Sequence record: NC_041937.1
Source: Escherichia phage V18
Length of the DNA: 64,000 bases
Direction: 5' to 3' (one strand)
This document shows, one piece after another, positions 7,316 through 8,132 of this stretch. A program made the position numbers and the translations under genes. Under the pieces are notes generated by a model. It searched no databases. It was not told the origin of the DNA and was given only the letters and a program-made list of their open reading frames with translations. Numbering within the stretch: position 1 is the stretch's first letter; every line of letters begins with the position of its first letter.

Positions 7316-7741
7316 TTGAGCAAGAAAGAGTCCAACGACAAATACTACACAAACCCTGAGTATGCAGAATATCTTGTTGGTAAAGTAAAAGATAAGTATG
7401 GGAATTGTGCATACGTTGAGCCTTCTGCTGGAAGGGGTTCTTTTTCAAAACTATTTTCAGAGATACTGTCGTACGATTTAGTACCAGATCCTGAATTTGA
7501 AGGACCAACACCGTGCATTCAGGCAAACTTCTTGGAGGTGCATCCCAAGGCAGATGTCTTCATAGGTAACCCACCATTTGGCAAGAATTCATCCTTAGCT
7601 TGCAAATTCTTTAACCATTGTGCATCATTGCTAGAGCTTGGAGGGGCTATAGCCTTCATCTTGCCACGGACATTTGAAAAAATTTTTTTCAAACAAACTG
7701 GACATGTCGATGCACCTTGTCTACAGCGAAAGGTGCCCTAA
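7316..7741 (+). CDS. small N6-adenine DNA methyltransferase, N-terminal segment (frame broken near 7676-7690)
   Basis: YYTNPEY, VEPSAGRGSF, IGNPPFG motifs; probable TTG start at 7316 after GGAGG; paralog of 21381-21914. Confidence 0.55.
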   Translation: MSKKESNDKYYTNPEYAEYLVGKVKDKYGNCAYVEPSAGRGSFSKLFSEILSYDLVPDPEFEGPTPCIQANFLEVHPKADVFIGNPPFGKNSSLACKFFNHCASLLELGGAIAFILPRTFEKIFFKQTGHVDAPCLQRKVP

Positions 7742-8132
7742 GAATTCGTTTTTACTTAATGGCAAACCTTATGACGTGCCATGTGTTTTCCAAATTTGGG
7801 AGAAAAAGGCGTGCAATAGGGATCCTGTAGAGATTGGAGAGAATAAGTTATTTTCTTTTAGCACACCAGATGACTACGACTTCTGTGTAAGACGTGTTGG
7901 GTATAATGCTGGAAAAGTATTGGGGGATGATGACCCAAAATCTGAAGAATCAACATATTTCATAAAATCTTTAGTTAACGGTGTTGACAGAGTGTTTGCT
8001 GAATGCTATTCTTCTTTTCAAGAAGAAGCAGGTAAGACTGCTGGAATGAAGAGTATAGGTAAGAAAGAACTACAATACATTTTGGAGACCAGGTATGATC
8101 AAAAGCATAGACTTGACCAAAGAACTTACTGA
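7674..8132 (+). CDS. continuation of the methyltransferase in another frame plus C-terminal extension
   Basis: NSFLLNGKP...VFQIWEKK aligns with SFQSNGR...YFVWDKK of the 21381-21914 paralog; overlaps previous ORF across an A6T7 run. Confidence 0.45.
   Translation: MKKFFSNKLDMSMHLVYSERCPKNSFLLNGKPYDVPCVFQIWEKKACNRDPVEIGENKLFSFSTPDDYDFCVRRVGYNAGKVLGDDDPKSEESTYFIKSLVNGVDRVFAECYSSFQEEAGKTAGMKSIGKKELQYILETRYDQKHRLDQRTY

Follow-up and report, generated by a model that had tools for sequence, protein, structure and literature searches.

The locus at positions 7316 to 8132 of Escherichia phage V18 is the Vequintavirus orthologue of a widespread SAM-dependent amino-methyltransferase, a single polypeptide of ~272 aa. 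In the V18 record its reading frame is broken after codon 125, where an A/T-rich palindromic tract is short of two bases. This break is a lesion and not a decoding mechanism, its most likely cause being a base-calling or assembly error, in which case the real phage would make the normal 272-aa enzyme. The gene was identified in a 64,000-nt stretch of the V18 sequence record NC_041937.1, hereafter referred to as the window. It is an already known and widely annotated phage methyltransferase, and a record-specific 2-nt lesion in such a gene is an ordinary finding; its biological weight is small, the interruption being most likely a flaw of one GenBank/RefSeq record.

Organisation of the methyltransferase locus

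The existing V18 annotation of this locus comprises only a 140-aa piece with an ATG start (positions 7710–8132; ASJ80452.1). Examination of the open reading frames delineated two larger frames, A (7286/7316–7741) and B (7674–8132), with B in the +1 frame relative to A, which overlap at a G-A6-T7 sequence (GAAAAAATTTTTTT; Table 1). A frame break at this A6T7 run had been reported in the first-pass annotation of the sequence, and was confirmed here both by the ORFs and by alignment to intact orthologues. The frame-A product consists of 125 authentic N-terminal residues (through F125), identical to the intact protein, followed by 16 aberrant residues (KQTGHVDAPCLQRKVP). Frame B is open from position 7650 to a stop codon at 8130–8132, and corresponds to residues 126 onwards of the intact protein. 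Based on tblastn, residues 1–125 of the intact protein have 100% identity to the window in frame 2, and residues 122–272 have 98.7% identity in frame 3. The SAM-binding motif EPSAGRGSF and the catalytic motif NPPF (residues 85–88) are both located inside the frame-A part. An intrinsic-terminator-like hairpin (AGGGAGGC-TTGC-GCCTCCCT, followed by a T-rich tail) closes the upstream exonuclease gene, just 5' of the methyltransferase ribosome-binding site.

Table 1 Positions of the methyltransferase features and of selected broken genes in the 64,000-nt window of phage V18
Feature	Position	Strand	Basis
Broken gene, HNH endonuclease	2608		Frame switch versus rV5_ev147
Intrinsic-terminator-like hairpin with T-rich tail	7278..7297	+	Terminator scan and sequence
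Shine-Dalgarno GGAGG (7307–7311) and TTG start codon (7316–7318) of the methyltransferase gene	7307..7318	+	Sequence
Frame-A reading of the methyltransferase gene, TAA stop at 7739–7741	7316..7741	+	ORF and tblastn
Lesion, G-A6-T7	7676..7689	+	Alignments with relatives
Frame-B (+1) reading, authentic C-terminal part (residues ~124–272)	7677..8132	+	tblastn
Broken gene, NrdD	~16845		Frame switch versus rV5_ev147
Broken gene, PhoH	19252		Frame switch versus rV5_ev147
Intact small methyltransferase, 177 aa, NPPY motif, phrog_799	21381..21914	+	ORF and profile search
Broken gene, 692-aa primase/helicase	near 58245		Frame switch versus rV5_ev147

Orthologues in related phages and in the wider family

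V18 (KY683736.1) is an rV5-like Vequintavirus, and over 100 rV5-like E. coli myophages of this genus match the window region at 98 to 99.7% identity. A single 819-nt CDS encoding 272 aa occupies the locus in phages nom, rV5_ev147, bov10K2 and Phage 203, and its annotated boundaries correspond exactly to the TTG at 7316 and the stop codon at 8130–8132. The orthologous genes of rV5-like phages are annotated as 'putative DNA N6-adenine methyltransferase' (rV5 YP_002003598.1, nom_92 QHR75657.1 and rV5_ev147 VUF54290.1; PHROG 5172). The V18 gene resembles them in its location between an exonuclease gene and a 152-aa ORF, and in its TTG start and stop, but differs in being 2 nt shorter within the A/T tract, which splits it into an ORF of 141 aa and a second, overlapping ORF in the +1 frame. 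Since the coding sequence of the orthologues runs through the junction uninterrupted, the +1 frame is certainly the true continuation of the gene, and the split is peculiar to the V18 record. The first-pass annotation had also taken the +1 frame as the real continuation, by comparison with a paralog elsewhere in the window; that similarity is weak, and the decisive evidence is provided by the orthologues. The ORF at 8095–8553, labelled as part of a methyltransferase in some records, was rejected as such, having no methyltransferase signal in any library.

The V18 allele was sought using a 111-nt segment centred on the break, with unique flanks, in a collection of phage records from which V18 itself is absent. 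A total of 118 records matched this query, and the 60 listed all span 113 nt with the exception of phage Alma (112 nt). None of the 118 matches in related phage records reached 99% identity, and the V18 allele is absent from these deposited relatives. At the protein level (tblastn), the intact sequence aligned in one uninterrupted frame to the listed records of Vequintavirus, Phapecoctavirus and Cronobacter phage GAP32, again except Alma, with identities of 54% to phAPEC8-like phages and 37% to GAP32. A search of 5.8 billion proteins returned 795 homologues, and the 120 of these that were listed are all single polypeptides of 239–395 aa (nearly all 248–295 aa), covering 80–100% of the query. 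More than 200 contigs carry the intact methyltransferase protein. Invariant residues in an alignment of 53 sequences include P117, F120 and K122 before the junction, and F146, V155, P156, Q160 and W162 after it.

Predicted structure and function

The 272-aa protein belongs to phrog_5172 (E = 2.5e-129), a family of unknown function, and its residues 3–118 also match phrog_799, described as 'DNA methyltransferase' (E = 3e-13). PF26055 is assigned to many of the listed homologues. The match to the Pfam family Eco57I (PF07669) was below threshold (16 bits versus a cutoff of 25.3; E = 0.013), as was that to MTS, and searches of NCBIfam and of PDB sequences with the 272-aa protein returned no match. 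Among the 53 homologues, motif I (EPSAGRGSF, residues 35–43) is invariant at E35, P36, A38, G39, G41 and F43, and motif IV is invariant throughout (G84-N85-P86-P87-F88-G89).

An AlphaFold model based on the 53 homologues had a pLDDT of 93.5 and a pTM of 0.88. The nearest solved structures were M.BseCI (7qw5), CamA (7lt5), M.TaqI (2adm, 1aqj) and a type I M subunit (Foldseek probability 1.0). The model shares with the gamma-class N6-adenine DNA methyltransferases M.TaqI, M.BseCI and CamA a class I SAM-methyltransferase fold (Foldseek E-values of 1e-7 to 1e-5) and a motif order comprising an N-terminal helix, motif I (EPSAGxGSF) and motif IV (NPPF). It differs from them in sequence and extent, with an identity of only 14–20% and a TM-score of 0.39–0.49 over ~200 aligned core residues, and in being smaller (272 aa compared with 380–560 aa), with a short and unrelated C-terminal domain. 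Judged by the modelled fold and the motif order, both of which match the gamma class, the 272-aa protein is a predicted small SAM-dependent amino-methyltransferase. The tRNA and rRNA amino-methyltransferases TrmN, Trm5 and PH1948 obtained Foldseek scores almost as good, for which reason DNA adenine is proposed here as the probable substrate and not as a demonstrated one. In the model, the break at residue 125/126 sits between a strand at 111–117 and strands 133–164 of the core. Without the last core strands and the whole C-terminal domain, the truncated 141-aa product should be inactive.

Sequence of the lesion

At the break the relatives have GAAAAAATATTTTTTGC and the V18 window has GAAAAAATTTTTTTC, a net shortening of 2 nt. 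The tract of the relatives, G-A6-TA-T6-G, is in frame, and AAAAAATATTTTTT within it is a perfect 14-nt palindrome. Two routes lead from this tract to the V18 lesion, either the loss of an A and a G, or the loss of TA together with a G>T change. Neither corresponds to a classic one-base homopolymer miscount, as the net loss is 2 nt, which speaks against an artefact. Outside the tract the 817-nt V18 gene has 100% nucleotide identity to that of rV5_ev147, indicating that the change either arose very recently or is not genuine. An in-frame A6-TA-T7-C allele (Ala126Ser) is present in a gut-metagenome contig (L007) and in a cluster representative (P0003), and the V18 tract could, on comparison of the two sequences, derive from such an allele by loss of one TA. 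The backgrounds closest to V18 all have a G after the T run, and the V18 allele would thus need two changes within 8 nt. At the same place the sequence of phAPEC8 is A6-TC-T6, again in frame, and no comparable tract exists in GAP32. A scan for the tract pattern found nothing in IMG/VR viral contigs and three loci in metagenomes, all of which are in frame.

Indels in the V18 record

The 64-kb window was compared with two complete relatives, rV5_ev147 and nom. Proteins of rV5_ev147 aligned to the window with 19 frame switches, affecting 18 of 125 conserved genes, whereas in the control comparison of the same proteins with nom, which is about as divergent, a single switch was found, in a 48-aa ORF. 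The V18 record (KY683736.1, a RefSeq entry) therefore appears to hold ~19 frame-breaking indels in 64 kb. Some of these breaks are reflected in annotated V18 products, including a 121-aa PhoH fragment (ASJ80468.1) and a 568-aa truncated primase/helicase (ASJ80554.1). The window has 53 specific indels of 1–2 nt, 41 of them deletions, and homopolymer contractions or expansions account for 30 of the 44 that are 1 nt long. The share of small indels located inside CDSs was 57% for V18 and 38% for the control pair, a difference that is not significant (Fisher p = 0.12), and the frame-switch count (19 versus 1) is the stronger statistic. The break in PhoH is also present in an independent 137,975-nt metagenome contig (~97% identical), and not every break in V18 is therefore an artefact.

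V18 was isolated from cowshed sewage and has been used in human phage therapy (PMC13304965, PMC7277081). A broken primase/helicase is hardly to be expected in a viable phage used in therapy, and the V18 record therefore contains indel errors. The methyltransferase break is most plausibly one more error of this kind, and we consider it probable that the break is an artefact of the record. Published literature on V18 yielded the accession and origin of the phage; the sequencing platform and read data were not found there. The methyltransferase gene is non-essential and a real knockout would be tolerated, an observation that counts against an artefact, as does the existence of other assemblies broken in the same tract, which makes real mutations there plausible. 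Resequencing of this therapeutic phage is advisable before the record is used as a reference.

Alternative explanations

The break had been attributed in the first-pass annotation to a sequencing error, a pseudogene or programmed frameshifting. The first two explanations stand, with error ranked first, and the third does not, the arrangement being neither conserved nor accompanied by a recognisable stimulator. A real 2-nt deletion is the less likely of the two but a reasonable possibility: the gene would be a recent pseudogene, inactivated when the A6-TA-T6 palindrome lost bases by slippage or deletion, possibly while the phage was propagated in the laboratory, and would be dispensable, or even counter-selected where hosts restrict methylated DNA. 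Four other assemblies with independent frame-breaking alleles in the same tract are consistent with this explanation, as is the PhoH frameshift common to V18 and an independent metagenome contig, which suggests that some V18 breaks are natural. The gene is moreover non-essential, and the BASEL study (PMC8594841) reports that restriction-modification systems act exceptionally well on vequintaviruses, even though these phages encode methyltransferases. Given this sensitivity in phages that possess several methyltransferases, the loss of one, if real, would not be surprising. Against a real deletion, none of the 118 phage records matched has the V18 allele, a collection of 15 billion proteins lacks its N-terminal product, and the two changes required within 8 nt are unlikely as a single natural event. 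The V18 record also breaks the essential primase/helicase and 16 other genes, which makes its indels unreliable.

The other broken alleles all fall within the same 22-nt tract, and comprise T6>T5 in phage Alma and Logan assembly ERR4562697, A6>A7 in Logan ERR8212412, and ACATTTG>ACATG (TTT>T) in ENA ERZ26723778. Together with V18, frame-breaking length changes were thus present in five independent assemblies (V18, -2; ERZ26723778, -2; Alma and ERR4562697, -1; ERR8212412, +1). In the 6.4-kb loci of the two Logan assemblies, all other called genes match the intact phiWec189 locus. The broken alleles were found by look-up of the 140-aa ORF, a procedure biased to breaks lying no more than ~60 nt 5' of the internal ATG. 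Approximately five broken alleles stand against more than 200 intact contigs, and among the broken ones sequencing error and mutation are indistinguishable. It is unlikely, although conceivable, that the palindromic A6-TA-T6 tract at codons 121–126 is a genuine mutational hotspot of vequintaviruses, of which the V18 allele would be one real instance. Such a hotspot might generate recurrent loss-of-function alleles, acting as a crude on/off switch when methylation is a liability. Hosts with methylation-dependent restriction are one example of a setting in which that liability would arise. If the recurrent breaks are real, the locus would be a modest, inexpensive system in which to study how phage methyltransferases are lost or toggled.

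Were the A6T7 run a site of programmed +1 ribosomal frameshifting or of transcriptional slippage, the break would be bypassed and the full-length enzyme still made, possibly in addition to a truncated regulatory product; we regard this as very improbable. Judging by the sequence, tRNA-Phe could shift by +1 and pair anew within the U7 run (UUU_UUC to UUU_U), and omission of a single U by a slipping polymerase would likewise bring the mRNA back into frame. The arrangement resembles prfB-type +1 frameshifting and homopolymer slippage in having overlapping 0 and +1 ORFs that meet at a homopolymer run. Unlike prfB-type sites, that of V18 is not conserved, has no in-frame stop or rare codon (the A-site codon is the common TTC), and has no upstream Shine-Dalgarno-like element, a GGAGG-like stimulator not being seen in the sequence upstream of the slip site. 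The relatives listed (except Alma) and the 120 homologues listed have one ORF in place of the split arrangement, and the A6T7 run itself is absent from the relatives, whose tract is interrupted (A6-TA-T6-G) and in frame. RNA structure predicted for 131 nt around and after the site was no better than that of shuffled sequences (z = -0.6). The V18 run is also short compared with known homopolymer slippage sites; efficient transcriptional slippage typically needs runs of nine or more bases, and those of V18 have six to seven. Calls of programmed frameshifting made on a single genome need to be checked against orthologues.

Least credible is a contingency (phase-variable) locus in which the A/T tract switches the methyltransferase on and off, a proposal that recalls bacterial phasevarions in combining a methyltransferase gene, an apparently length-variable simple tract (alleles differing among the five independent assemblies within 22 nt) and in-frame and out-of-frame alleles across isolates, but from which this locus departs in that its tract is short and interrupted, with runs of only A6 and T6/T7 that are below the usual phase-variable homopolymer length, that broken alleles are a rare minority with biased ascertainment, that PhoH, another non-essential gene, has a similar number of broken copies, and that the tract is not conserved in GAP32.

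Additional methyltransferases in the window

The intact 177-aa methyltransferase (Table 1) is identical to rV5 ABI79188.1 and V18 ASJ80472.1, and matches phrog_799 strongly as a member (E = 5.5e-67). A search of PDB sequences with this protein gave chance-level matches only. The two proteins had been described in the first-pass annotation as paralogs with a common motif order, and the order is broadly borne out, although the motif patterns given there were approximate. The N-terminal motif is YYTNPE in the 272-aa protein and YVTPE in the 177-aa protein, followed by EPSAGRG and EPCRNSASG, respectively, for the EP...G motif, NPPF and NPPY for the catalytic motif, and NSFLLNG...QIWEKK and PSFQSNG...FVWDKK for the downstream block. 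Direct comparison of the two proteins by pairwise BLASTP was weak (E = 0.029; 27% identity over 89 aa). Alignment of the 53-sequence family to the 177-aa protein using hhalign gave E = 5.2e-5 and a probability of 67%, with 22% identity over 144 columns. This alignment pairs residues 9–166 with residues 8–159, crossing the break and ending at the W(E/D)KK block, and the two proteins accordingly do align across the junction. The earlier alignment over this region was right, and is not strong evidence on its own. The term paralog is too strong for this relationship: the identity is 22%, the PHROG families differ, and there is no sign of a recent duplication. On the profile comparisons, including the match of both proteins to phrog_799, the similarity exceeds chance, and the 272-aa and 177-aa methyltransferases are distant homologues with a common catalytic core. 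A third methyltransferase in the window, a 441-aa PF01555 enzyme, is encoded at positions 60599–61924.

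Frame disruptions in the V18 record

A total of 18 of the 125 genes conserved with the complete relative rV5_ev147 carry frame switches in the window (19 switches altogether), while the control genome pair of similar divergence, rV5_ev147 and phage nom, carries a single one. Genes encoding the 692-aa primase/helicase, PhoH, NrdD and an HNH endonuclease are among those broken in V18, and from the sequence comparison the record looks error-prone.

The 22-nt tract of the methyltransferase gene that holds the V18 lesion also has frame-breaking indels in other independent assemblies, namely phage Alma, Logan ERR4562697, Logan ERR8212412 and ENA ERZ26723778, each differing from that of V18 (T6>T5 twice, A6>A7 and TTT>T). 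The A6-TA-T6 palindrome may be a hotspot, either mutational or of sequencing.

The PhoH-like gene is divided into pieces of 121 and 151 aa in the ORF list, the second being 141 aa in the V18 annotation. An identical split is present in an independent metagenome contig of 137,975 nt (ENA ERZ27290372), as well as in several short Logan and ENA contigs; the break is thus a natural allele and not an artefact of V18. The nrdD (anaerobic ribonucleotide reductase) region is also variable, with small indels and in-frame stops clustering within the V18 gene's N-terminal half, a split nrdD plus an additional 321-aa ORF in phage nom, and a DUF723/T5orf172 gene following nrdD in the 137,975-nt contig; this variability suggests mobile endonuclease traffic.

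Locations of features in the window and in other loci (L005, Alma; L009, phiWec189; L018, 137,975-nt contig)
Feature	Location	Strand	Remark
Example frame-switch sites	2608, ~16845, 19252, 27631, 27895, 31819, 35781, 39883, 40437/40560, 42507, 43222, 44607, 47069, 51708, 58245
Indel-bearing tract loci	L005:660-675; L011:2967-2980; L012:2965-2980; L013:~2350-2360
PhoH-like gene, two ORFs	19022-19809; L018:9639-10426		Break at 19252 in the window; L018 locus is the counterpart
nrdD region	15686-17805; L016:15795-19205; L018:5257-8438		Variable
441-aa candidate methyltransferase	60599-61924	-	PF01555 N6_N4_Mtase, E 1e-42
261-aa ORF, candidate methyltransferase	58583-59368	-	Phage nom counterpart named 'site specific DNA methylase'
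phiWec189 methyltransferase gene (LC739538.1)	L009:516-1334		DNA intact
152-aa ORF	8095-8553		Overlaps the methyltransferase gene end
8-nt tandem duplication	8572-8587		5' end of ORF 8565-8780
C17 run	38102-38118		Among small genes

Other local features

Two further methyltransferase candidates were noted in the window. A Pfam search with the 261-aa ORF returned no match, and window-specific indels at 58586-58593 change its 3' end. The 8-nt tandem duplication (AATGACAC AATGACAC) is likewise window-specific: none of the nine comparators spanning this position has it. The C17 run is C16 in the relatives rV5_ev147 and phage nom, its length being unreliable whatever the sequencing chemistry.

Annotation of related records

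For phage phiWec189 only the ATG-start, 140-aa C-terminal part of the methyltransferase is annotated, together with two antisense ORFs; the gene caller evidently missed the TTG start. In some relatives the label 'putative DNA N6-adenine methyltransferase' is attached to the 152-aa ORF (nom_93 of phage nom and the APECc02 record cited in its note). This ORF belongs to phrog_9938, a family of unknown function, and gave no methyltransferase signal and no match in Pfam and NCBIfam searches; on these grounds it was rejected as part of the methyltransferase, and the label is probably an annotation carry-over.

Approximately 20 unannotated records named 'Campylobacter phage', within GenBank MG065647-MG065684, match E. 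coli vequintaviruses in this region at ~98% identity, the names likely reflecting mislabelling or contamination.
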